Shown: positions 1,456 through 27,400 of the stretch, piece after piece | Layout: every line of letters begins with the position of its first letter | Numbering within the stretch: position 1 is the first letter of the stretch | Origin: a virus | Lineage: Duplodnaviria > Caudoviricetes | Reading direction: 5' to 3' (one strand) | Length of the DNA: 27,869 bases | Virus record (IMG/VR): IMGVR_UViG_3300028588_000076 | Location: 1-27,869 of that record | Made by a program: the position numbers and the translations under genes | Notes under the pieces: model-generated | The model's database searches: none | What the model saw: only the letters and a program-made list of their open reading frames with translations | What the model was told of the DNA's origin: nothing

Positions 1456-2148
1456 TTATTCATTGTCGCAATACAGTGCAGGATTGATGACGAAGGCGCC
1501 CGAGCTATCCGGTACGGCAATCTTAAAGCTGTATAGCAGTGCGCATGCCAGCGCAACGTGACTCGCCGCGGTCGTATCGCCCCACTTCAACTCCGACACC
1601 AACTGCATCTTGAACTGCGCTTTGGTAAAACCGCCACGCATGAGCATGTCACATGCAACACGCAAATATTTTGGCCCACTCTCAGCGAACGGGTTGCCCT
1701 GTACCGGTAACAGGCTGCGCATATCGTCAACCTTACCGTTCTTGCACAGTACGATCGCCTGTTCACGCGCTTTGAGGTTTTTTGTTCCAAGCATGTCGAT
1801 TGTCGCCTGGTCTTCGGGTGAAATGCTATGCACCGTCTTGACCATTGGCGTAGTGCGCTCAAGCGGCTGCACAATCGCCGGCGCTTGCGACACAGGGACC
1901 GTCGATGGCTCAACTGGTTTCTTTTTGCCCGGTGGGCTTAAGCGGTGCGCTACGCGTGCGCGTGCCGCTTTGTGACGCGCCAGCAAGTCAGTCACATCGA
2001 CAAGCTGGCGAATTTCTTGCAGCGTTTTGACCGATTCTTCGCCGCAACCGGCGTAAGCGGGGCATGCTTGGCACACCACCGAGTCCGCTCCGTACACACT
2101 GGCGCTTGCAAAGCAGCCTGGAGCTTGTTGTTCGGCTGTCGCTGTCAT
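1456..2148 (-). CDS. Hypothetical protein: N-terminal 4-Cys cluster, possible C-terminal winged helix
   Basis: 230-aa ORF with ATGA coupling to the upstream gene; CFAS...CQACPAYAGC; Pro-rich linker. Confidence 0.75.
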   Translation of the reverse strand: MTATAEQQAPGCFASASVYGADSVVCQACPAYAGCGEESVKTLQEIRQLVDVTDLLARHKAARARVAHRLSPPGKKKPVEPSTVPVSQAPAIVQPLERTTPMVKTVHSISPEDQATIDMLGTKNLKAREQAIVLCKNGKVDDMRSLLPVQGNPFAESGPKYLRVACDMLMRGGFTKAQFKMQLVSELKWGDTTAASHVALACALLYSFKIAVPDSSGAFVINPALYCDNE

Positions 2149-2900
2149 CTTGCGTAAATCTCCTCGATTCTCTCTACCACGCGTTCCAACTCTGCTTCGG
2201 CAAGCACAAGCTGACCTTTTGGCACATCTGTGACCAGCCCAACGAACTTTTTCACCGCTGACACTGACACACCGTCGCGCAGCCCCTTGGGGCGCTTTCC
2301 TGCGGCGAGGGCGCGATCTGCATACGCTTCCTGCGCTGCCAGTTCACGCAACAGTTCAGGTGGTGGGTTACGCAACCATTCAACCATGAGTAGCGCCAAT
2401 GGTGACAAGTCAGCGGTGACTTGGTTCCACACCTGTTGAAACTCAACGATTTCCTCGGGAGTGCGCATTTCCGAGGCGATCGATTCTTCAAACGACGAAT
2501 AATCCTCGTCACGCGAGGTCAAGTCACCGAAGTTCATCGGCTGCAGACCGTATGCCATTTCTGGCAGTTCCGCTTGACCCAACCCGCGCCGGCGCGCATT
2601 TTCCTCTTTGCGCTGCACGATCTCGGCGCGCTGGTCGGTATTGAGGTTTTTGACACCGGTCATGATGCCAATCTCACGGCGAAATTCAGAGAATGCCGCC
2701 TGGGTATAGTACGTTGAAAACTTGAAACCACTGTCCGGGTTATAGCTTTGCGCAGCGGTCAGAAATGCCACGCTGGCGATCTGAAACATGTCGTCGTAGT
2801 TCAGACCGCAGCCGGTCTTTGACGCCCACTGCAAACCACGCCTGGCTTGCAAGTGGACGAGGCCGACATTGTCTTCAAACTTGACTGCCGGCTGAGACAT
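2145..2900 (-). CDS. Divergent sigma-70-family (region 2) transcription factor
   Basis: NVGLVHLQARR...GLNYDDMFQIASVAFLTAAQSYNPDSGFKFSTY matches the sigma-70 region 2 pattern NLRLV...DL.QEG..GL..A...FDP..G.KFSTY. Start taken as MSQPA, 1 nt after the cobS-like stop. Confidence 0.8.
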   Translation of the reverse strand: MSQPAVKFEDNVGLVHLQARRGLQWASKTGCGLNYDDMFQIASVAFLTAAQSYNPDSGFKFSTYYTQAAFSEFRREIGIMTGVKNLNTDQRAEIVQRKEENARRRGLGQAELPEMAYGLQPMNFGDLTSRDEDYSSFEESIASEMRTPEEIVEFQQVWNQVTADLSPLALLMVEWLRNPPPELLRELAAQEAYADRALAAGKRPKGLRDGVSVSAVKKFVGLVTDVPKGQLVLAEAELERVVERIEEIYAR

Positions 2901-2901
2901 G

Positions 2902-4113
2902 TTACACCGCCCCGAAGATACGCTGCGCCAGACCGTCTGCCACTTCGCGGTCAACCTTGCACAGCTTGCTGATGAAGGAGCGGTTCAGCCCATGACGGAA
3001 CGAACCACGCAGTACGCCGATGCGGCTTGCGTAAATCAGGGTACGCGGCGACACGGTGTCGCTCATACGACCGGCAGCGAACGCTTCGCGAATCTGCGTG
3101 GCGAAGTCGATCATCTTGTCAGCGTCTGGCTCGTTCATGGCGCAAGTGTTCTGCAAAATCTTGCTTTCAGCTTTCTTGTCCATGTATTGCTTGTTGATGA
3201 CCATGCCGAAGCGGTCATAGTTCGCGCTGTTCTGAATCAGGGTGCCTTGATATAACCCGGTCTCGTCGCCCGAACCGTTCGTGTTGCCAGTTGCGGCCAT
3301 ACGGAAGTTGGGATGCGGTTTGATGACCCGCAGTTCAGCCGGCGCCTCTTTGATGACCAGCGGCTTACCTTCCAACACCGCCTGGTACACCGCCAGCACG
3401 CTTGGCATTGCGAAGTCGTATTCGTCAGCCACATACACCCAGCCGTTGATCATTGCCATCGGGAGCGGGCCGAGTTCGAACACGGTCTCGCCACCCTTGA
3501 CGGTCCACTGCCCGACGATGTGGCTTTCTTCGGTGTTCACGGTATGCTGCACACGCTGCATTGGCCGGTTGGTACGGGCGCAGACTTGCTCCCACAGTTC
3601 GGACTTGCCCGAACCTTTGTGGCCCCAAATGTAGCAGGGAATGTTCTTCTCGACGGCCAGGATCACGTCCTTGAGTTCGTCGATGTTGTAGACGTAGTTG
3701 TTCGACACTGCCGGCACCATGTCTTGCTGGTCGTGCTTGGTCATGACACTGATCGGAATCGGGTCGCCGCGCTTGTTCATCGCAGCTTTGATTGAGCCAA
3801 AATCGAACACTTCGTGCAGCGGTCGCGGGACCAGTTGGCCCTTCGGGATCAGGGCCGAAATGCTGGCGCCTTCTTCCTTCGTCACCGCTGCCGAGGCAGT
3901 CATTTCCATGACCGCTTCTTCCTTGACGGCGGCTTGTTCTTCGCGCTTTTTCTTTTCCAGCAGATCGATCGCCGCTTGCGACATCACTGGCTCGCCTGGG
4001 TAGAGCGAGCGGTATTGATCGAGGGTGATACCGGCGTGCGCTTCTGCCAGGTGACGCTGAATGACATGGGTCTGAGCGCCGCAAATCTTGCAGCTAATTT
4101 TTTGATTGCTCAT
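2902..4113 (-). CDS. CobS/MoxR-like AAA+ ATPase with N-terminal C2H2 (Ros/MucR-like) zinc finger
   Basis: Walker A GHKGSGKS, Walker B YVADEYD, HPNFRMAATGNTNG, ANYDRF, SPRTL; N-terminal CKICG...RHLAEAH...QYR. Confidence 0.92.
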   Translation of the reverse strand: MSNQKISCKICGAQTHVIQRHLAEAHAGITLDQYRSLYPGEPVMSQAAIDLLEKKKREEQAAVKEEAVMEMTASAAVTKEEGASISALIPKGQLVPRPLHEVFDFGSIKAAMNKRGDPIPISVMTKHDQQDMVPAVSNNYVYNIDELKDVILAVEKNIPCYIWGHKGSGKSELWEQVCARTNRPMQRVQHTVNTEESHIVGQWTVKGGETVFELGPLPMAMINGWVYVADEYDFAMPSVLAVYQAVLEGKPLVIKEAPAELRVIKPHPNFRMAATGNTNGSGDETGLYQGTLIQNSANYDRFGMVINKQYMDKKAESKILQNTCAMNEPDADKMIDFATQIREAFAAGRMSDTVSPRTLIYASRIGVLRGSFRHGLNRSFISKLCKVDREVADGLAQRIFGAV

Positions 4114-4179
4114 TGAGCTTTTTCTCCGATGCGACCGACTTCCGGTCAGGTTGATATTGCGCTTCGTGTGACAGACATC

Positions 4180-4223
4180 ATGATAAGCGGGTCGGTCAGG
4201 AACCGCAAGTCAGTGATGACTGA
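4180..4223 (-). promoter_or_regulatory. Promoter TTGCGG-17-TATCAT with TCCTGACCG spacer box; operator palindrome (4206-4223) over the -35
   Basis: -35 at 4203-4208, -10 at 4180-4185; CAAGTCA-gtga-TGACTGA. Confidence 0.75.
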
Positions 4224-4249
4224 TCTTATGCGGTTCCGTCACGGTTGCC

Positions 4250-6184
4250 TTACTTAATGAGTACGGCGCGCAACTCCTTCATGACAACGGTTGGCAATTC
4301 GCTGACGTTGTGCAGCACAAGCGACTTCGGATAATACTGACGCACCGCGTCCGACTCGATCCCGATCCCCAGCACATTGACGCCCGCCTTCATGATCGCC
4401 TTGACGGTTTTCTTCAAGTGCTTCGACAGTTCTGCCGACGAACCAGCAGCGTGCGGAGCGCCATCAGACAAGACCATCATGATCTTGCCGGCTTCACGAC
4501 GCGCCATCAGACGACGCGCGGCGATCTCGATGCACTCGCCGTCGACGTTATTGCGCAAGTCGCTGCAATGCGGAAGCCAGGCAAAGCGCTGCTTGATGTT
4601 GGGCAGCAAGCGCTCGTCGAAGCCTTTCAAGATTGGCATATACAGCGATTCATTGCGGCTATAGCTGCGCCCAATCTTGGCAATCTCGCTTTCGTAATGC
4701 GCCCGGTCGTCATATGCGGCGCGACCAGTCGTGAAACAGATCACTTCGCAAGGGATGCCGATACGCTCGAGAACCGACGCCAGGGCATATGCGGCGCGAC
4801 TGGCGGTCGTCACCTTGGTGCCGCTCATCGAACCGCTCATATCCACCACCAGTTCAACGGCGACGTCTTTGTTGGTCACTTCGTGCTTTTTGCGAAACAC
4901 CCGCGGATCACCCACCGCCAAGCGGCTCAGGTTGGCAGGGTTAAGACGACCGCTGCGGTGACCGGATACCCACTGCGACAGCGACCGGGCCGAGATCGCA
5001 CGCTCCAGGTCTTTTTGCAGCGGGCCAACCATGTGATCCACATCGTCGACCATATTGCGCATGTAGTCGTCCCTGTAGCCTGTACCGACGACAAGCGGCT
5101 CGATCACATCAAAGTCCTTGGTGTAGATCAGATACTCGGCATCACTGGCGGCATCAGCGGCGCTGTTGGTAATGACCGATGACACGCAATCGTCGAAGTC
5201 GACTGCCATGTTTTTGTCGATGTCGTTCCAGGTCATGGCGCTTGACGAAGCGATATCTTCTTCATTGCCTTCTGGTGCGGCGCGCTCGCCCGGTTCAGCA
5301 TCGCCGGGCGTGTCGTCACCTTTTTCGTCACCTATGGTCATGTCGCCCGAAGGGTCGGCAGATGGGTCGCCGGCACCGCTGCCAGGGTCGCTTGGGTCGC
5401 CGCTCGGATCAGACGGATCACCGCTCGGGTCAGATGGATCAGAAGGGTCAGAGGGATCGCTCGGGCCAGCGCCGCTTGGCGTCTTCAATGGTGGTGGCGA
5501 AGCAGAAGGGTCCGCTGGGTCGCTCGGGTCAGATGGATCGCTCGGCAGCGCTGACAAGCGTTTCTTGATCGTCGACGCCAACTTCAGACAGTCGTCCGTC
5601 GTAACAAGCGCTTCGATCTGAGGAACCAGGTCCTTGATCTTGTCATACTGCTCTTGCACGTGCGCCATCTTGTCTTTCATGAAGTCGCGGTAGACATGCT
5701 GACCTGCCATCCCGCGCAGCAGCGGCACCATGAGCAAACCAACAGCCTTTTCGTTATCACCTTGTGCCAGCGCCTCTTCCAGTTTTGGCATGGTGTACTT
5801 CTCGAGGAAGAATTTGCCGACCCGGTTCAGGTTATCGGCCGACCCTTCGAAGCGCTTGGACATTTCACGCTCGATGCGCGAGTCTTCCAGCAGGTTGAGC
5901 ATGTTACCGGTGCCTTCACGCATCGCTTTTGGCATGGCGTTGAAGTCGGTGAACAGAATGTGCGCCACTTCGTGATCCAGAAAACCCTGGACCGCGTCGA
6001 TCAGTTCGTCAGTGCCGTTGTCAGGGATGAACGGCAGGTTGACCAGAAATGGCACACCCTTCTCGTTCGCTTTGACATACGCTTTGATGCCGCGTTGCGT
6101 CACTTGAATACTTTTGCCGGCAAGCATCTGCGTGATCTTGACGATCGCCTCACGCATGATATGGACTCGGTCGTTCATCGCCAT
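4250..6184 (-). CDS. CobT-like vWA protein (N-terminal HExxH domain, DPS-repeat linker, C-terminal vWA)
   Basis: DHEVAH; MIDAS VVDMSGSM, N.DGE, VLSDGAP, GIGI; lies directly upstream of the CobS-like ATPase. Confidence 0.92.
   Translation of the reverse strand: MAMNDRVHIMREAIVKITQMLAGKSIQVTQRGIKAYVKANEKGVPFLVNLPFIPDNGTDELIDAVQGFLDHEVAHILFTDFNAMPKAMREGTGNMLNLLEDSRIEREMSKRFEGSADNLNRVGKFFLEKYTMPKLEEALAQGDNEKAVGLLMVPLLRGMAGQHVYRDFMKDKMAHVQEQYDKIKDLVPQIEALVTTDDCLKLASTIKKRLSALPSDPSDPSDPADPSASPPPLKTPSGAGPSDPSDPSDPSDPSGDPSDPSGDPSDPGSGAGDPSADPSGDMTIGDEKGDDTPGDAEPGERAAPEGNEEDIASSSAMTWNDIDKNMAVDFDDCVSSVITNSAADAASDAEYLIYTKDFDVIEPLVVGTGYRDDYMRNMVDDVDHMVGPLQKDLERAISARSLSQWVSGHRSGRLNPANLSRLAVGDPRVFRKKHEVTNKDVAVELVVDMSGSMSGTKVTTASRAAYALASVLERIGIPCEVICFTTGRAAYDDRAHYESEIAKIGRSYSRNESLYMPILKGFDERLLPNIKQRFAWLPHCSDLRNNVDGECIEIAARRLMARREAGKIMMVLSDGAPHAAGSSAELSKHLKKTVKAIMKAGVNVLGIGIESDAVRQYYPKSLVLHNVSELPTVVMKELRAVLIK
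5340..5545 (-). repeat. Imperfect 9/12-bp coding tandem repeats encoding (DPS)n/(GDPS)n
   Basis: PSDPSDPSDPADPSA and GPSDPSDPSDPSDPSGDPSDPSGDPSDPG; CGCTCGGGTCAGATGGATC occurs twice (about 5422 and 5521). Confidence 0.9.
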
Positions 6185-6201: not shown

Positions 6202-6254
6202 TAAGTAATTTCTGACTGACGATATACTATAAACAGAGCGGTCAGGACGCACAA
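6202..6254 (-). promoter_or_regulatory. Promoter TTGTGC-17-TATAGT with TCCTGACCG box; operator (6202-6219) at or just after the predicted start site
   Basis: -35 at 6249-6254, -10 at 6226-6231; TAAGTAA-tttc-TGACTGA. Confidence 0.75.
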
Positions 6255-6538: not shown

Positions 6539-6718
6539 GTGACTTGCTCCTTGGGATTGTTTTGTTATGTTAGACACCTAACATAGCCATTATAGTTCAA
6601 GCGTTTCGTAAATTGACTGTGATCAATTTAATTTAATCATCATTTCTCTGCATAAACCCTATTGACAAATTTCGACTGCCGTCCCAAGTAAATATGCAGC
6701 CGTAGCATGCGCATGCAC

Positions 6719-6759
6719 TATAATTGATTCGTTACCAATATTAAATCACTAGCGACTTA
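6719..6759 (+). promoter_or_regulatory. Repressor promoter region: TATAAT (6719-6724) and operator copy (6742-6759)
   Basis: TAAATCA-ctag-CGACTTA lies between the -10 box and the AAGGAG RBS; no clear -35. Confidence 0.6.
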
Positions 6760-6782
6760 TTGTTGCCAAAAAGGAGTTTCAA

Positions 6783-10879: not shown

Positions 10880-10923
10880 ATGATACGGGTCACGGTCAGG
10901 ACCGACAAGTCATCACTGACTGA
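10880..10923 (-). promoter_or_regulatory. Promoter TTGTCG-17-TATCAT with TCCTGACCG box; operator (10906-10923) over the -35
   Basis: -35 at 10903-10908, -10 at 10880-10885; CAAGTCA-tcac-TGACTGA. Confidence 0.75.
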
Positions 10924-10932
10924 AACGACCGG

Positions 10933-12027
10933 TTAGCGCTTCTTTAGCCGCAGTCGCGTTGCGGTGGCCGGTGTCAAGTTGGTCGCGCTGTAGAACGCCT
11001 CGCGCACCACCTGGGCCGGCACTTCATTCGGGTCTTTGCCTTCAGGCAGAATGGCGATACGCACCTTGAACCCCACGGACAGCAGCAGCAACCCCGCCTT
11101 GATTGCGTCGTCGATCGCCTTGTCTTCACCGTCCCACATGAAGGTTACTGTCTTTAAGCCGCGCTTCTTCAGTGCCAGCAATTTGGCCAACTGCCCGTTC
11201 TCGTCGCCGTGGGACAAGTGCTTGCCGAACGTACCCACCGCCACGACATCGCGCAGTGTCATATCTTCATCGAGCGCGATCTTGATGGCAGCAACGTCGA
11301 ACACGCCTTCGCCCAAGACGATCTGTTCGGCGCCCCAGGCATTGTGACCGTTGTACAGGTGCGTACCGGTACTGGCGAACCCGGGTGGGAACAGGTATTT
11401 CTTGTCGGCGGCGCCGGTGGTGTCACGACCCTGAAACGACACAAGCTCGCCTTCAAGATCAAACACAGGAATCAAGACCCGCCTGTCATAGCTTTGCACG
11501 CGCGTCTTGCCGTCTTCCACGTAAGAGAACTTGCCTTCATGGCAGTAACGCAGTTCGAAGTATGCGGCAATATTGGCAGTGATCCCGCGCGCATCCAGGT
11601 ATTTCAGGTTGCGCCCGTTGTGCGGTAGCGCGATCGACTTTGGAAACTTAAGCTCGCCAGTGACGGTTGTTGCCACCTCTTTCTTGCGCGGCGGTCGCCA
11701 CCCCTGCTCTCGAGCCACCTGTTTGATGTGCTCGATGGTGTCCCGGTGCGGCGTGCCTAAATGGGAAGCAATGAACTTCCACTTGTTGAATTTAACCTCA
11801 CAATCGCCGTCGAAGCAGTTGCCAAGACCACTTTCGGCGTTCAGGTAGACCTTCCACTTGCTACTGCCGCAGCAAGGGCACTCCTGAACGTTCAATTGCA
11901 TGCCTCGGCTACCACGATTGAGCTTGTACTCGATACCTTCGCGATCGAGCCAGGCTTCCATGTCGATCAGGTCCAGCGCCTCTTGCAAGTCATTGTTCTC
12001 GGCGCGGTAGCTGACATGTGCGCTCAT
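10933..12027 (-). CDS. DNA primase (zinc ribbon + TOPRIM)
   Basis: ECPCCG...GNCFDGDC zinc ribbon; FQGR, KYLFP, EGVFD, WDGED, KDPNE; ATGA overlap at 12024-12027. Confidence 0.93.
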   Translation of the reverse strand: MSAHVSYRAENNDLQEALDLIDMEAWLDREGIEYKLNRGSRGMQLNVQECPCCGSSKWKVYLNAESGLGNCFDGDCEVKFNKWKFIASHLGTPHRDTIEHIKQVAREQGWRPPRKKEVATTVTGELKFPKSIALPHNGRNLKYLDARGITANIAAYFELRYCHEGKFSYVEDGKTRVQSYDRRVLIPVFDLEGELVSFQGRDTTGAADKKYLFPPGFASTGTHLYNGHNAWGAEQIVLGEGVFDVAAIKIALDEDMTLRDVVAVGTFGKHLSHGDENGQLAKLLALKKRGLKTVTFMWDGEDKAIDDAIKAGLLLLSVGFKVRIAILPEGKDPNEVPAQVVREAFYSATNLTPATATRLRLKKR

Positions 12028-12269
12028 CGTGGTTTGCGCCAGTAGGTGCTGTTGATACCGATGCGAATCGACAGCCACAAGATGATGATGCTGTACAGGC
12101 GAATGCCGGGAGAGTCAGGTCGCTCATACCAGCCGAACGCGAACAGGTTGTACTTGCGATCGCCATTCATGAGCGTGTTCGACCACAGTTCGTCAGCCGC
12201 CATGACGACCAGCATCAGCCAGGGAAGCGGCATCCATTGAAACTTGTAGATACGCGTTTTACCCGACAT
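12024..12269 (-). CDS. Small Trp-rich hydrophobic hypothetical protein
   Basis: Overlaps both neighbours; start MSGKTR with GAGG upstream. Confidence 0.6.
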   Translation of the reverse strand: MSGKTRIYKFQWMPLPWLMLVVMAADELWSNTLMNGDRKYNLFAFGWYERPDSPGIRLYSIIILWLSIRIGINSTYWRKPR

Positions 12270-12516
12270 ATGCCGCCTCGACCTTGTCGTTACGCACATG
12301 CAGATTGATACGATCGCAACGGCAGTCTGCCGTGACTGGGCGAGGCGTACCGTCCAGGGTCACGGTGCGACTTTTTACAGCGCGCGCCTTGAGGTAAGTT
12401 TGCGCTTGCGTTACCGTCATACCGATCAAGAATTTCTTGTCGATGATGTAAGCGGCACGCCTGGAACGAACCTGCTGAATTTCAGCATGCGCTTCTTGGC
12501 TAGTTTTCATCGTCAT
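12259..12516 (-). CDS. Potato inhibitor I / I78-like serine protease inhibitor-fold protein
   Basis: LIGMTVTQA...PVTADCRCDRINLHVRNDKVEAAYVG resembles L.G....A...VT.D.R.DR+.+.V...V......G; ATGA-coupled. Confidence 0.75.
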   Translation of the reverse strand: MTMKTSQEAHAEIQQVRSRRAAYIIDKKFLIGMTVTQAQTYLKARAVKSRTVTLDGTPRPVTADCRCDRINLHVRNDKVEAAYVG

Positions 12517-12842: not shown

Positions 12843-14303
12843 TTATTCGACGCGCATGATGCCCGAAATGAATTTCATCTTGGACAGTTCTTGCTTGATG
12901 AAGATGGTAAAACCGCCTTCTTGGTTACGCGATGCTGCAAAGTACAGGCGCGCTTCGCCGGTTGCGCGTTCTTCGTCAGTCACATTGATCGAAATCATAA
13001 TGTCGACAGTGCGGACCTTATTGAAATCTTCTGCAACGTGTTCGGCTTTAACAACCGCAGACTTGAAGCCCTCCCGGTTCGATTGCGTCGCCGTCAGCAT
13101 TGCGGCATCTTCTTCGTGCGCAATGGCGCGCAGATCCAGGTAAATGCCCTTGCTGTTCTCGATGGCGTCGTTGACCCGGTGGTTTGGCGCCATGATGTCG
13201 GCATAGTCGACGATGATCAGGTCGAACTTGATCGCAGGGCGCAGCGTGCCATTTGGCATGAACTTTGGGCTCTTGTACCGCTGCAAGAGACCGCGCAACT
13301 GGTTCGGCGTCAGGGTGCCCGATGGGTAGTTGTGAATCTTGAGCGCGCCTGCTTTTGGCATGAGCGCTTTGACCTTCGATGCTACCGAGTGCATGCTGTC
13401 CATCAGCTTTTTCACTTCGGTGTCCGACATCGTTGCGTCCATACGCTCCGAGATAATGTCAGCCGACACTTCGCAGGTTGCGTACAGCACATTGTAGCCG
13501 GCGAGACTTGCCGCCTTGGCAAAGTTGATCAGGGCGGTGGTCTTACCCGACTTTGCGCCACCCAGGATGACCGACAGTTCTTTTCGGCCCCAGCCTCGGT
13601 GATACAGCAAGTCGTCAATCTCGCGATGACCGGTGGTAATGCCGGTCGGTGGCAAGATGCCCATCTTTTTGTCATTGCGCTTGTTGGTGCGCTCGTCGAT
13701 CTTGTCGAAGTAGTCGTATTCGTCGCCGTCGGTGTTGATCCCAACCTCGACCGCAGCCTTGATGCGCGCCTCGATCTTGTCGAACTGACGCTTCTCGAGC
13801 AACTCCACGGACTCGAGAATGGTCGCTTGCACCGCTTGATGCCTGGCGAACTCAGCAACCCGCTCGGCAATCGCATCGCCGTCAGACAGGTCCGCTTCGG
13901 CGCCGTAGACGCCCTTGAACGCTTCGACTGCCGCAGGCTTGATGTCTGAGCGAACGATCTTGCTGACGATGTCCTCTTTGAGCATTTCCTTGGCGATGAC
14001 TGCCGTGGGAACGCTGCCATGCTTTTCGTAGTAGCGCATGGCGATATTGACCATCGCCGCCTCGCCGGCATTGTCAAAGTATTCGGGGCGCACCAAGTGA
14101 CCGACCTTGCGCATGAAGTCCAGGTTGCGCACGGCGTGTACTGCCACCTTCGACTGAAACTCGTCGTCAAAGTCATACGTGTCGGTGCCGATTGCCATGG
14201 GCGCACTCGACGCACCATGCGCGGGACCGTGCGCTACGCCGTGCATCACGCCGGCGACCAGCGCCACTACCTCGGCTTCTGCATGTGCCAATGCATCAGT
14301 CAT
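12843..14303 (-). CDS. dnaB: DnaB/SF4 replicative DNA helicase
   Basis: ITTG..EID, Walker A GGAKSGKT, CE, IIVDYAD, TATQSNR, ASRN. Confidence 0.93.
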   Translation of the reverse strand: MTDALAHAEAEVVALVAGVMHGVAHGPAHGASSAPMAIGTDTYDFDDEFQSKVAVHAVRNLDFMRKVGHLVRPEYFDNAGEAAMVNIAMRYYEKHGSVPTAVIAKEMLKEDIVSKIVRSDIKPAAVEAFKGVYGAEADLSDGDAIAERVAEFARHQAVQATILESVELLEKRQFDKIEARIKAAVEVGINTDGDEYDYFDKIDERTNKRNDKKMGILPPTGITTGHREIDDLLYHRGWGRKELSVILGGAKSGKTTALINFAKAASLAGYNVLYATCEVSADIISERMDATMSDTEVKKLMDSMHSVASKVKALMPKAGALKIHNYPSGTLTPNQLRGLLQRYKSPKFMPNGTLRPAIKFDLIIVDYADIMAPNHRVNDAIENSKGIYLDLRAIAHEEDAAMLTATQSNREGFKSAVVKAEHVAEDFNKVRTVDIMISINVTDEERATGEARLYFAASRNQEGGFTIFIKQELSKMKFISGIMRVE

Positions 14304-14740
14304 GCTACGCGCGCCGTCGTGGTGTAGAACTCGCTGATGTCGTGCTTGTAGATCACGCGCTCCACAGGCGTAACTGTCACGAATTCATCGTCGTTAGGCT
14401 GCTTGATCGAAGCGACCAGCATCGTTACGGTGTACGAATCGCTATGCTTGAGCTTGCCTTGATACTGCTGGCCCGACGACACCTTTTCGATGATGACGTT
14501 GGCACCAGAGTGGCACAGGGCGCGCAGAAACGCTTCGTGACCGACGACCGGCTTTCCGCCCGGGCGCTTGATCGGCGCTTGGTCTTTTTGTGGGCGTTTA
14601 GCGCCGTCATTCAGGGTCAGGGTGATGGTGCGACGTGCCGGTGGTGTCTCTTGCGCGGCCAGGCGGCGCGCTTCTTCGATTTGGGCTTGACGCTCGGCGT
14701 CGACGGTCATGCAGCGACCGAGTTCGTTCGGGTGATTCAT
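14300..14740 (-). CDS. Hfq/Sm-like RNA chaperone with N-terminal extension
   Basis: HEAFLRAL...V.I..V.SG...QGKL...DSYTV...VIYKHDIS aligns by eye with Hfq QDPFLNAL...[23 protein letters not shown]...MVYKHAIS; GGAG RBS. Confidence 0.8.
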   Translation of the reverse strand: MNHPNELGRCMTVDAERQAQIEEARRLAAQETPPARRTITLTLNDGAKRPQKDQAPIKRPGGKPVVGHEAFLRALCHSGANVIIEKVSSGQQYQGKLKHSDSYTVTMLVASIKQPNDDEFVTVTPVERVIYKHDISEFYTTTARVA

Positions 14741-14790: not shown

Positions 14791-14816
14791 ATTATAGCTC
14801 AATCAGTTCTGACTGA
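14791..14816 (-). promoter_or_regulatory. TATAAT (14791-14796) with adjacent degenerate operator (14799-14816), upstream of the Hfq-like/helicase operon
   Basis: TCAATCA-gttc-TGACTGA; no good -35. Confidence 0.55.
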
Positions 14817-15522
14817 ACTGTTCTGCCAAGCACAACTCGATTGCGGCATCGATCGCCGTCGCGGGGAAGATACGAATTGCCGCTTCGATACGCACGGCGT
14901 CATGGTGGTACAGCGCCGCATGCAGGGCGAATTTCGGATGCGCGCGCTTCATGATCGCTTCCGCCAGGTAGGCTTCATACGCCACTTGGTCGGGTGCGCC
15001 GACAAACTGCGCGGCGGTGTAGCGCGGGTTGATCGCCCACTGCACCTTGGCTTGACATTCTTCATGCCAGCGGTTCATCACAAATACGATCAGGTCGTCA
15101 TTGGTCGATACATGCGCCGGGCGTGGTGGTTGACGCCAGCCGTTGTCGATACACCATGCCATCGCTTCGCGGCAGAAAAAGTCGTATCGAATGCCAAGCT
15201 CATCGATGCGCTGGCGTAGTTTCCAGAACGACTTGACTTCCCGCGCCATCATGACGTCTTTACCCTTGAATGCGGCCATGAAGCGCTTTTTGTAGTCGAG
15301 CGCTTCCTTCATGAAGTCACCGTAGGCCCGGTTGTAGTGATGGGCCAGCAAGTAGGTTGCCATGGTTGGGTGTAGTGGCCGATAGTCGAACCACTTTGTT
15401 GCGTACAAGCCGACTTCTTTCTTCAAGAGCTTGGCGTCGATCCGGGCGATCGCAAATGCCTCGCATTCTTGGCGTGTCAATGACGAGCCGAAGAATGTCC
15501 CGTAGATGCCTTCGATGTTCAT
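14803..15522 (-). CDS. Hypothetical protein (possible replication initiator or helicase loader, by position only)
   Basis: 239-aa ORF with GGAG RBS, between the inverted-repeat element and the helicase operon. Confidence 0.8.
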   Translation of the reverse strand: MNIEGIYGTFFGSSLTRQECEAFAIARIDAKLLKKEVGLYATKWFDYRPLHPTMATYLLAHHYNRAYGDFMKEALDYKKRFMAAFKGKDVMMAREVKSFWKLRQRIDELGIRYDFFCREAMAWCIDNGWRQPPRPAHVSTNDDLIVFVMNRWHEECQAKVQWAINPRYTAAQFVGAPDQVAYEAYLAEAIMKRAHPKFALHAALYHHDAVRIEAAIRIFPATAIDAAIELCLAEQFSQN

Positions 15523-15533
15523 GGGTTTCTCCG

Positions 15534-15654
15534 CTTGGGGTGGACTTGGGGAATGCCACCCGTTTCTAAATACTTATTACTTTATGTTGTATGTTTTGAT
15601 TGTAGTTATAAAGACTTATAGAAAGCGTCGGCATTCCCCAAGCTCCACCCCAAG
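15534..15654. repeat. 24/25-bp inverted repeat flanking a 72-bp AT-rich core
   Basis: CTTGGGGTGGACTTGGGGAATGCC (15534-15557) / GGCATTCCCCAAGCTCCACCCCAAG (15630-15654); one 1-nt indel. Confidence 0.92.
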
Positions 15655-15655
15655 T

Positions 15656-16483: not shown

Positions 16484-16505
16484 ACTATACATCAGTGCTG
16501 ACTTA
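16484..16505 (-). promoter_or_regulatory. TATAGT -10 overlapped by an operator copy (16488-16505), upstream of phoH
   Basis: TACATCA-gtgc-TGACTTA. Confidence 0.6.
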
Positions 16506-18390: not shown

Positions 18391-18433
18391 ATTTTACTTC
18401 CTTTGGAGAAATTTGTAAATCAGTAGTGACTTA
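18391..18433 (-). promoter_or_regulatory. Near-consensus sigma-70 promoter TTTACA-17-TAAAAT for the lysis cassette; operator (18416-18433) over the -35
   Basis: -35 at 18414-18419, -10 at 18391-18396; TAAATCA-gtag-TGACTTA. Confidence 0.75.
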
Positions 18434-22444: not shown

Positions 22445-22466
22445 ATTATAAGTCAGCGATGACTTA
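22445..22466 (-). promoter_or_regulatory. Perfect operator palindrome (22449-22466) overlapping TATAAT (22445-22450)
   Basis: TAAGTCA-gcga-TGACTTA. Confidence 0.8.
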
Positions 22467-24406: not shown

Positions 24407-27400
24407 CGCATCACCTTACCGTAAATCACTCCATTTCGTGACCAGAACAATATCCAGTCAGTCCCCGAGGTTTTCAGCGTGTAACCTGCCAAGTTAAAAT
24501 TGGTCGTTGTATCACCCGAGCCATCGCCTTTAACCCAGTTGATCAAAGAGGACCACGTAACTGGATAAGCCGCACCATTGATAAGCTCAAGCATCATGAA
24601 TGCTGAAGAGTATGCACGTGGGTGCGCCGTCAGATTGATTGTTGTAGCTGCGGTTGGGGTAACGACGTTATGTCCAACCCATGACAGATTAATTGTTGCA
24701 TTGAATGGAACGGTAATGACTTCAACGGTACAGAGGCTAATCATCGCTCCTTTAATGCCAAAAGCGGAATTAGTCGCCCACGTAAGAGTACCGTTCATAC
24801 TTCCGCCGCCGGAAGATATACGGGAATTAACTTGGTTTTGCAGCTTCCCGAATGCGGTGAGAATCGTATCAGCCGCCGCAACAGTTCCACTTACAGTGCT
24901 ATACCCCGTAAGTGGGGTGGAAAGCTTTGCGTATCCTTCGTCGTTAGTAAGCTGGCTAACTTTAGTCAGATTGCCGCTGTCCCACACCTGCTTCCACTGA
25001 CCCCATCCATTCTGTCCGTCAGGAGTGTCGTCAGTGCGAACCATCAAGCCTTCAGCGTCAGCCAAGCAAACAATTTGAGTTCGCTGCCCCGATTGATCCA
25101 TCTGCAAACCCACTGCATCAGCGGCCCCGGCAGAGATAGGTGCGCCAACTGCTGCACCAGAAGACCCAGGGACAGGTCCAGCGCCGAAGCCGAAGAAGCG
25201 GTTGCCGGATAAGGTATCAAGGTTGGTTTCTTGACGACGCCCGAGGCTCAAGCTGCCGTACATCACAGCATGTCCAGATGTGCGGTCCATATTGAACATC
25301 TCGCGCATTGCAGCGCTATTGTCCCACCCACGGATGACAAAGTTAGAACTGCCGCCATTATCTGCGGCAATTTGCCAACGCATTACACCCAGTGTCTTGA
25401 AGTTCAGGGAACGGTTAAATGCGCCCTCGCCGTCAATATTGAATTCAGTATCCGATTGAGCAGTATCTTTGACAGTCATATTGGCGGTGAATACGTTCAC
25501 TGCCGCCAAGCTACCGTTAGTGGTTACGTTACGACAAATAGTCGCAACGCCAGTCGTATCAGCAGCGTCTTTACCCGCTTGGTAATACATCGCACCACCG
25601 GAAGACAGAATACGACCGGCGATACCACCAGAACCATCGCGGAAAACAATGCCGCCACCATTGCCCGTTTGGAAGGTACTTGCATTCATCACCTGCGCAG
25701 TACTGCCATTCAGGGCGGCTTTACCATTCAGTGCGGTCGAAACATCAGTACCAGCCACGGATAAGGTATTTGCCGACAATCCTCCAGCCACAACTACGCT
25801 GTGAGCCATGTGGACATTGCCGTTGGTCAGATCAATGCGGAAAGGACGCAGTGCGTTAAAGTTTCCGTATGGAGTGGCCGGGTCGGTCAACAGCATGTAG
25901 AAATGCGAATCATCTTTACGCATAACCACGCCGGGAGTGGCACCCGTAGTGACCAGGCGCAAACCATTAAGACTGGTGGAGATAAATTCGTCCGACAGTA
26001 CACGCCCCAAAGCGTCACGAGCCACAACGGTATTGACCGACGAAACATTCGAACTGACACGCCCATTCACCTTGTCGGCGTCATCAGCCTTCTTAACCCG
26101 CGAAGACCATTTGAAGCCACCATCAATAGCAACCGTGTGGGTGCGGAAGCCCCACAGATACCCTTCACCATCCACAGACATGGCGATAGAGCGTGCAGGG
26201 CTGTCCTGAGCAACCAGTGCCACGGTGTATTGAGGGTTCCCGGTGGTGCCGATAGTTCCGTCAAATACGGCGGTGTACAAGCCTGTAGTTTGCTGACTGG
26301 GGGCCGAACCATTGATGTTGAACGTACCCGGCGACTTGAACTCACCATTCATCGACACCGGGCCGGTGAACGTTGCACCAGTTAGGCTTGCCTTACTCGC
26401 CAACGAGTTGGTCATGGTAGTGGCGAAGTTAGGGTCATTACCCAGTGCAGTAGCCAGTTCATTGAGCGTGTCGAGCGCGGCAGGCGCGGAGCCCATCAGG
26501 GTGTTGATGGCAGTAGCAATCTCAGTCTTGACGTATATGGCAGGGGTCAGTTGCTGGGTCGAAGCACCAGCGGCAGGAGAGGGGCCAGTTGGAGTGCCGG
26601 TGAATACCGGCGAAGCCAGGTTGGCTTTGGCATTGATCTGTGCCTGAGCTTTACCGAACGCAGTCTGGATGGTGTCATTCGTTGCGATAGCTGAATTGGT
26701 CAGGGTTACAGCGGTCAGGCCCGAGCCGCGGACAGCACCCGCGATGTCAATCCACTGTCGATCACCACGAAGAAGTTGCGAAGTCGTACCGCCAGCAGGC
26801 AGGGCAACTGCGGCAATGTCAGGCTTGTTGAGAATCAGCGCCTTACCATCGGTGGCATTCCAGTCAGCATTGACTTGACCAGCGGCCATTTGATCGGCGT
26901 AACCTTGAGCGCGATTCGCCTGGGTCAGCGCCGTACCTGCATGACCTTGCGCAGTGTCGCGCGCAGTTTCAGCGGCGGTTTTCGCAGTCTCAGCGGCGGT
27001 CTTTGCGGTTTCAGCCAAACCCTTCGCGATGTTCGTCGCGGTCAACGCCTGGTCGGCGCCAGTCTTGGATGCGGCCGCTTGACCCGCCGAGGTGCTGGCG
27101 GCTTCGGAATAATACTTTGCGCTGTACAGACCGCCGGCGACAACACCGGTAGCGGTTGCCCAGTTCGATGCCAGGGTTGCGCTTGCAGATGCGTCGTTGG
27201 CGTACTTGCGCGCACCGTACAGACCGCCAGCGCCGGTGAAGGTGTTGGTCAGTGAAGTTGCCCAGTTTTGAGCACTGGTGACGTGACCTGCCGCAGTGGT
27301 GACCGAGTTGCCCGCCGTGGTCGCGCTTGCCGCGGCATTGGCGGCATACTGTTTAGCCGAGAAACCCTGACCGGTGACGACTTCGGTCGTGTCTTTGGTG

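Follow-up and report, generated by a model that had tools for sequence, protein, structure and literature searches.

A gene termed hfqL, located at 14300..14740 on the minus strand of a 27.9-kb virus fragment (hereafter the window, 27,869 nucleotides in full), encodes a real, strongly diverged relative of Hfq, the textbook small-RNA chaperone of bacteria. The 146-amino-acid protein has the Hfq/Sm fold and belongs to the Hfq branch and not to Sm/Lsm, as judged by ORF translation, Pfam, a family profile, an AF2 model and structure alignment. It is a member of an old, phage-specific family, a widespread and unstudied Hfq variant that resides inside a phage replication module. We tentatively propose, from sequence comparisons, that hfqL would be a non-essential accessory ring that acts in starting phage DNA replication, with a predicted role in docking to the helicase and not in annealing small RNAs.

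The relevant genes are arranged on the minus strand in the order phoH, phrog_2500, hfqL, dnaB, three small ORFs and primase. The hfqL ORF (14740..14300) has a GGAG sequence 9 nt ahead of its ATG. Its TGA stop overlaps the ATG of the DnaB-like replicative helicase gene (12843..14303, minus strand) at 14300-14303, precisely the ATGA overlap that had been reported by the first-pass annotation. The DNA primase gene (10933..12078, minus strand) is located 3′ of the helicase in the same gene run. The helicase shares 37-54% identity with its counterparts in Acinetobacter, Aeromonas, and enterobacterial phage-plasmids (927 plasmid records) and in phages nickie, RHEph10, and SSU5. An 85-aa ORF in the helicase-primase interval (12259-12516, minus strand) gives a weak match to the potato inhibitor I family (E 0.006). 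Elsewhere in the window, positions 2902-6184 (minus strand) encode an AAA ATPase of the CobS type, which has a ROS/MucR-like segment at its N terminus (E 3e-4), together with a VWA partner resembling CobT.

The AF2 model of hfqL has a mean pLDDT of 84, and residues 71-140 score 92-98. The model contains a helix (H67-78) and a five-stranded bent beta-sheet, which together constitute an Sm/Hfq fold. This core of alpha1 plus five strands spans residues 65-141 (14318..14548, minus strand). When the model was compared with known structures using VIA-align, the top matches were the Hfq proteins of Synechocystis (Z 10.8), Caulobacter (Z 10.6), and S. aureus (1KQ1; Z 10.5, rmsd 1.0 Å over 60 residues). 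Spliceosomal Sm chains tie with Hfq near Z 10, and Hfq and Sm proteins fill the top ranks (Z 9-10.8). A family profile made from 47 sequences distinguishes between the two branches: Its search of the PDB yielded 36 matches at E values up to 1, of which 35 are Hfq and none is Sm/Lsm, and the best match is again S. aureus Hfq 1KQ1 (E 2e-8). The earlier identification of an Hfq-like protein is therefore well founded. The lone hfqL sequence scores 21.2 bits (E 2e-4) on PF17209, below the cut-off of 27, whereas the match of the family profile to S. aureus Hfq is clear. On TIGR02383 it scores 15.1 bits, far below the equivalog cut-off of 61.7, and some relatives reach E 1e-10 on the same model. Searches of phages and plasmids with the single hfqL sequence gave no match, and a search of the PDB gave one chance match. 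Single-sequence searching was thus insufficient, and relatives were found through profiles and synteny.

Purifying selection acts on the core in each of the eight sequence pairs compared (for the window copy against locus L007, dN is 0.14 and dS is 0.78). Purifying selection is much weaker in the N-terminal part of the protein. This part includes a helix at residues 10-30 (14651..14713, minus strand; AF2 and alignment) that carries an R..Q motif in 28 of 46 relatives, after which comes a basic, flexible linker.

Alignment with E. coli Hfq (taken from NC_000913.3; core identity 29%) places H68 of hfqL at Q8, C76-H77-S78-G79 at R16-R17-E18-R19, E85 at Y25, G90 at G29, Q91 at I30, G95 at G34, D101 at D40, Y103 at F42, and Y131-K-H-D-I-S136 at the Sm2 residues Y55-K-H-A-I-S60. 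In E. coli numbering, the rim arginines R16, R17, and R19, a trait of Gram-negative Hfq, are replaced by C, H, and G, and the distal A-rich site formed by Y25, L26, I30, L32, Q52, and T61 reads E, K, Q, Y, R, and E. The proximal U pocket keeps Y42, K56, and H57, with histidine in place of Q8 and serine at position 41. All substitutions and retained residues (the Sm2 motif, G29, G34, D40, and the aromatic residue at 42) that the first-pass annotation had listed are real, and only the change at position 41, which is K in 43 of 59 relatives, had been missed. The register of strand beta1 is fixed by the hydrophobic pattern at positions 22 and 24, and HMMER yields the same register. A shifted register that restores Y25 or the rim arginines, which had been raised as a way in which the alignment might fail, is therefore ruled out. 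The protein is also longer than E. coli Hfq at two places. There are 67 residues ahead of H68, so that the N-terminal extension exceeds that of E. coli Hfq by 60 residues, slightly fewer than the ∼65 first estimated. The beta3-beta4 (L4) loop, defined by alignment and the AF2 model (residues 108-127; 14360..14419, minus strand), has 20 residues compared to five, and the 15 extra residues have a net charge of −3.

The residues that survive across the family were counted in 59 rows at under 85% identity, after four unrecognisable or degenerate rows (three Morganellaceae and one Stenotrophomonas) were dropped. Roles were assigned to positions according to PMC10628458 and PMC5379935. Invariant or nearly so are H8 (58 rows), G34 (57), D40 (59), T43 (56), and K56 (59). 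Within the proximal pocket, K41 is present in 43 rows, an aromatic residue at position 42 in 54, and H57 in 52; aromatic 42, K56, and H57 occur together in 49/59, and a D-K-[YF] sequence is found in 41/59. Q8 is replaced in every row, and 10 rows lack aromatic 42 or H57. The surfaces used by bacterial Hfq for other contacts have fared worse. No arginine remains at the rim in 52/59 rows, Y25 persists in four and I30 in two, which supports the earlier view that the protein is not a plain Hfq substitute. Positions 25 and 30 are highly variable (about 3.2 bits each), so that the distal face is eroded, not redesigned, and the suggestion that remodelled faces form new surfaces does not hold. Similarly, the acidic insertion of about 15 residues that had been described exists in this copy alone. 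Across the family the L4 loop spans 5 to 24 residues and its net charge is 0 or −1 in 36/59 rows, and a conserved acidic loop was rejected on this evidence.

A surface on alpha1 is newly conserved, with G7, H8, E9, A10, K13, and A14 each found in 45-58 of 59 rows. Part of this conservation derives from the search pattern, although the same alpha1 type also dominates among loci found through phrog_2500. The 15 residues ahead of H8 carry a net charge of +3 or more in 48/59 rows, and several strand residues are typical of the phage proteins (T43 in 56/59, V53 in 53/59, F55 in 55/59, and F62 in 53/59). Five rows have lost the base-stacking aromatic residue at position 42 yet retain D40 and K56, with the gene still preceding dnaB, which suggests that these two invariant residues may be structural. 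Likewise, three Morganellaceae versions lack both K56 and H57 and remain ahead of dnaB. In Morganella, Xenorhabdus, and Stenotrophomonas elements, the hfqL position is occupied by Sm-like ORFs that are highly degenerate and have no KH motif (L155:4173-4409, L156:4241-4471, L157:4194-4472, and L005:3802-4011).

A profile search recovered 184 hfqL representatives at 50% identity. Of 63 loci found with hfqL, 62 are complete, and the order phrog_2500-hfqL-dnaB is present in all 62. As a control for search bias, loci were also fetched through phrog_2500. Of 322 viral loci obtained in this way, the best 80 were taken; 79 of these are complete, and hfqL is present in 79/79. The tie to the helicase gene is therefore far stronger than the one overlap on which it had first been proposed. 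Prokaryote assemblies provided 21 phrog_2500 loci, 19 of them complete, in which hfqL is clear in eight, weak or degenerate in four (a Halomonas version passes the Pfam Hfq cut-off and a Xenorhabdus version matches at 1e-4), and absent from seven. The gene is missing from SSU5, RHEph10, a Chitinibacter element, and SSU5-like relatives. Members of the family are found in nickie/SSU5/Acinetobacter-type phages and phage-plasmids, several lineages of which have lost hfqL, and the gene does not accompany every such helicase, as a loader of the G39P type would be expected to. Hosts with hfqL ahead of dnaB range from alpha- to gammaproteobacterial, and 153 Acinetobacter plasmids match the family.

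In a phylogenetic tree, the 59 phage proteins form one supported branch (99/98) apart from the host proteins, in an alignment of 72 columns with only six host Hfq rows and long branches. The four rows left out of the counts, from Morganellaceae and Stenotrophomonas, grouped with the host side. Recent capture from a host hfq gene is not favored, given the separate phage branch seen with these six rows and 72 columns. Canonical host Hfq is present in 5/5 host genomes tested, and the Hfq cores of the hosts examined barely differ from one another. Proteins labeled "Hfq-like domain" also occur in other phages but are unrelated or distant.

The spacing between hfqL and dnaB is at most 5 nt in 51/62 rows, and 22 have an ATGA-type overlap. 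At the phrog_2500 end there is a promoter-like palindromic AGTCA-N4-TGA box followed by TATAAT (14791..14814, minus strand), with eight copies of the box in the window compared to 0.77 expected. The box and a TATAAT or TATACT hexamer occur at this end in 42/58 rows, and the window's own copy has, by eye, one extra spacer base. The helicase transcript therefore probably begins with hfqL, which would head a helicase operon. Sites of the form AGTCA-N4-TGACT are found in the window at 2408-2421, 4208-4221, 6204-6217, 10908-10921, 14802-14814, 16491-16503, 18419-18431, 22451-22464, and 26862-26875. They mostly precede genes, often beside a TATAAT-like hexamer. The box is a probable operator or phage promoter element, and its conservation extends from Acinetobacter to Magnetospirillum elements. 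A protein encoded at 2145-2954 (minus strand) matches sigma-70 region 2 (Pfam E 3e-6) and might read the repeated box. At the corresponding position, SSU5-type loci carry an AAACAA..TTGTTT palindrome. A sigma-70 promoter scan did not pick up the AGTCA-TATAAT box, no Rfam match was obtained anywhere in the window, and the hfqL leader RNAs share no U-rich or structural element except a short hairpin in close relatives.

Upstream of these genes, the interval between phoH and phrog_2500 contains an origin-like element (15533..15655) identified by composition and repeats. It includes the 60-mer with the highest AT content in the window (21.7% GC compared to 55.8% overall), which is flanked by 24-nt inverted arms, and four of the window's five CTTGGGG heptamers. 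Origins are usually built as an AT-rich core surrounded by iterons, and the element is a candidate lytic origin of this phage lineage. The same layout is found by a strict rule in 32/63 relatives, including the Acinetobacter type, and is absent from the SSU5 type and from one clade of short hfqL proteins. Because iteron-like arms around an AT-rich core lie directly upstream, the phrog_2500 protein (14803..15522, minus strand) is a candidate origin-binding initiator by virtue of its position. A phrog_2500 profile found no PDB match at E 5, and the Atlas gave no usable match. The resulting order, origin-like element, phrog_2500, hfqL, and helicase, would put hfqL in the place expected of a loader if phage SPP1 is taken as the model. 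In an Acinetobacter phage-plasmid, a plasmid RepB gene takes the place of phoH just upstream of the origin-like element (L001:1625-2473). The window has a second AT-rich stretch at 6560-6780 (27-33% GC) amid short ORFs.

The helicase itself carries a short amphipathic helix motif at residues 8-22 (14238..14282, minus strand; consensus AE.SVA.MIG.S[FY].G), located on a variable linker ahead of the first domain, which alignment identifies as a candidate docking peptide. All 125 matches to this motif are in DnaB ORFs, and a docking tag common to other phage proteins was therefore rejected. Synonymous codons vary within the motif, indicating that it is conserved at the protein level, and for the same reason a constraint acting on the RNA was rejected for the start of dnaB. 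As scored by regular expression, the motif accompanies the GHEA[FY] type of hfqL alpha1 in 45/47 rows compared to 3/24 others. By eye these values become 47/47 and 0/24, since the two misses carry the motif and the three extra matches are false. The motif is never seen without hfqL. Rows that have lost it show hfqL altered at 32-45% of conserved sites, compared with a median of 5% elsewhere, and less change in phrog_2500 (21-24%) and primase (15-17%); 8/72 conserved phrog_2500 sites change in these rows. On a DnaB tree built mostly without the motif segment, the motif state needs three changes, including two forced losses, and hfqL absence needs at least three. Four nested motif-loss rows are one clade according to the hfqL tree and shared phrog_2500 changes. 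The co-occurrence would thus reflect one gain and one or two losses, which makes it a lead and not proof. Because hfqL and the helicase N terminus are adjacent DNA, linkage alone could explain the pattern, and the motif could instead dock on phrog_2500, primase, or DnaB itself. Overlong helicase genes, probably intein-bearing, occur at L045:4349-7162 (about 900 aa) and at L139 near 3597-5604.

The reading that we regard as a serious possibility, if short of probable, is that hfqL docks on the helicase. We infer that hfqL would self-assemble into a ring, as other Hfq proteins do, and would be co-produced with DnaB from its own promoter via translational coupling. Its alpha1 surface (H8-E9-A10, K13-A14, and E16 in E. 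coli numbering) would grip the helicase N-terminal helix, helping to bring the helicase to, or keep it at, the neighboring origin to which the phrog_2500 protein would bind, and the proximal pocket and basic N-terminal linker would provide a second contact by holding single-stranded U-rich (or T-rich) nucleic acid. Consistent with docking are the fixed gene order with its short gap, the SPP1-like placement of an origin-like element, a DnaB-specific motif that tracks the alpha1 type, the excess of hfqL change where the motif is lost, and retention of the gene before dnaB where aromatic 42 or K56 and H57 are gone. The main point against docking is repeated gene loss (7/19 complete prokaryote loci), given that the SPP1 loader is essential; moreover, the co-occurrence involves few events, and the origin and initiator are predicted from sequence layout. 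A stricter version, in which an Hfq ring is the helicase loader that grips the DnaB N-terminal helix and the melted strands while phrog_2500 sits on the CTTGGGG arms, seems to us rather unlikely. The set of proximal residues kept in 49/59 rows is equally explained if hfqL only binds RNA, with its pocket capping the U-rich 3′ ends of phage transcripts and the basic linker helping. Such a protein might stabilize or autoregulate early messages such as hfqL-dnaB, and its position would reflect co-expression or feedback. This explanation is possible, if somewhat doubtful. It draws support from the D-K-[YF] residues (D-K-Y as in S. aureus Hfq), from the basic residues ahead of H8, from the place of hfqL as first gene behind a conserved promoter box, and from T4 GoF, a phage protein of LSm fold whose D25Y mutant alters the helicase mRNA level, although wild-type GoF had little effect, as far as described in PMC12152347. 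It is weakened by S41 in this copy, by the universal replacement of Q8, by the 10 rows lacking aromatic 42 or H57, and by leader RNAs with no common U-rich or structural element; it leaves the helicase motif unexplained, and its chief difficulty is that the gene is retained where the pocket is destroyed. Docking and RNA binding are not mutually exclusive.

The remaining explanations direct hfqL at the small-RNA machinery. A sponge that captures the U tails of host small RNAs without annealing them, silencing host Hfq-dependent regulation early in infection, would suit a protein that keeps the proximal pocket and has lost the rim and distal face, which PMC10628458 describes as annealing surfaces, and would find canonical Hfq in each host genome tested. 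We consider it improbable because it does not account for fixation before dnaB across alpha- to gammaproteobacterial hosts or for retention in lineages with a destroyed pocket. Even less expected is that hfqL poisons host Hfq, entering its hexamers as a subunit that takes away their rim and distal sites. The conserved K56, H57, I59, and beta4/beta5 pattern is compatible with mixed rings, but host cores are near-identical and the phage strands keep their own residues (T43, V53, F55, and F62). These residues and the separate branch fit self-assembly better than host matching, and poisoning would need no tie to dnaB. Of the three roles suggested in the first-pass annotation, this one is the worst fit and is unlikely, whereas the helicase adaptor has gained indirect support from comparative sequence data. 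Least probable is a functional replacement of Hfq, acting on small RNAs of phage or host, with the basic N-terminal linker standing in for the rim arginines. The linker itself, the four relatives with Y25, and the high TIGR02383 scores of some members are in its favor, but the distal face is eroded and the window protein falls well short of the equivalog cut-off; a literature search yielded no precedent for replacement of the rim by a basic N-terminal tail.

No study of the hfqL family was found in the literature, although the supplement of PMC7969092 may include it with the core genes of phage-plasmids. Databases already contain the family and label some of its members Hfq, and the mechanism put forward here is a prediction. 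If the readings favored here are true, hfqL would be either the first case of an Sm ring acting at a replisome or a minimal RNA binder with one face left, and both can be tested in cultured members, namely phage nickie and the Acinetobacter and Aeromonas phage-plasmids. A loader of this type, if real, would represent a new class of replication-initiation factor in nickie-like phages and Acinetobacter-type phage-plasmids, with a parallel in archaeal plasmids. The origin-like element and candidate initiator would give a first handle on the start of lytic replication in this phage-plasmid lineage.

Compared with bacterial Hfq (PF17209, TIGR02383; S. aureus 1KQ1, B. subtilis 3AHU, and E. coli), hfqL shares G34, D40, aromatic 42, and [YF]KH.I, and S. 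aureus Hfq likewise lacks rim arginines. It differs in the change of Q8 to H, the eroded distal face, the long L4 loop, the 60-residue extension, and the phage replication context. A plasmid Hfq, unlike hfqL, depends on its distal face, according to PMC5348863. Orthologs of the same family, WP_000614153.1 (Acinetobacter phage-plasmid), WP_181715926.1 (Aeromonas phage-plasmid), and YP_009620715.1 (phage nickie, gp117), which correspond to phrog_19781 and phrog_5258, occupy the same place before dnaB. The Acinetobacter and Aeromonas proteins are automatically annotated "RNA chaperone Hfq" in RefSeq. The Acinetobacter-type ortholog, unlike the window protein, lacks aromatic 42 and the helicase motif. 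In SPP1, G39P is not known to have the Sm fold, and the genes for G38P, G39P, and G40P are adjacent. Like G39P, hfqL would have a loading-related job and sits between an origin-associated gene and the helicase gene, and unlike G39P it would be non-essential. PMC5615212 describes G38P as the origin binder, G39P as an essential loader, and G40P as the helicase. The T4 GoF/MotB.1/Frd.2 proteins, termed the first phage LSm-like family, are non-essential and tied to helicase mRNA; unlike hfqL, their genes do not lie beside the helicase gene, as far as described, and the account reports no confident homo-oligomer (PMC12152347). Cyanobacterial Hfq (PDB 3HFO), a tied top structural match of hfqL (Z 10.8), offers a precedent for docking, since its partner is the ATPase PilB and, according to PMC8092324, an RNA substrate has not been identified for it; PilB is a pilus motor, and hfqL in contrast keeps the [YF]KH motif. 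A second precedent comes from thermococcal and methanococcal plasmids, in which an Hfq-like gene adjoins and is co-transcribed with a helicase gene and a role in replication has been proposed. As described in PMC3543421, these archaeal genes differ from hfqL in that they lie downstream of the helicase gene and are mostly fused to a zinc finger.
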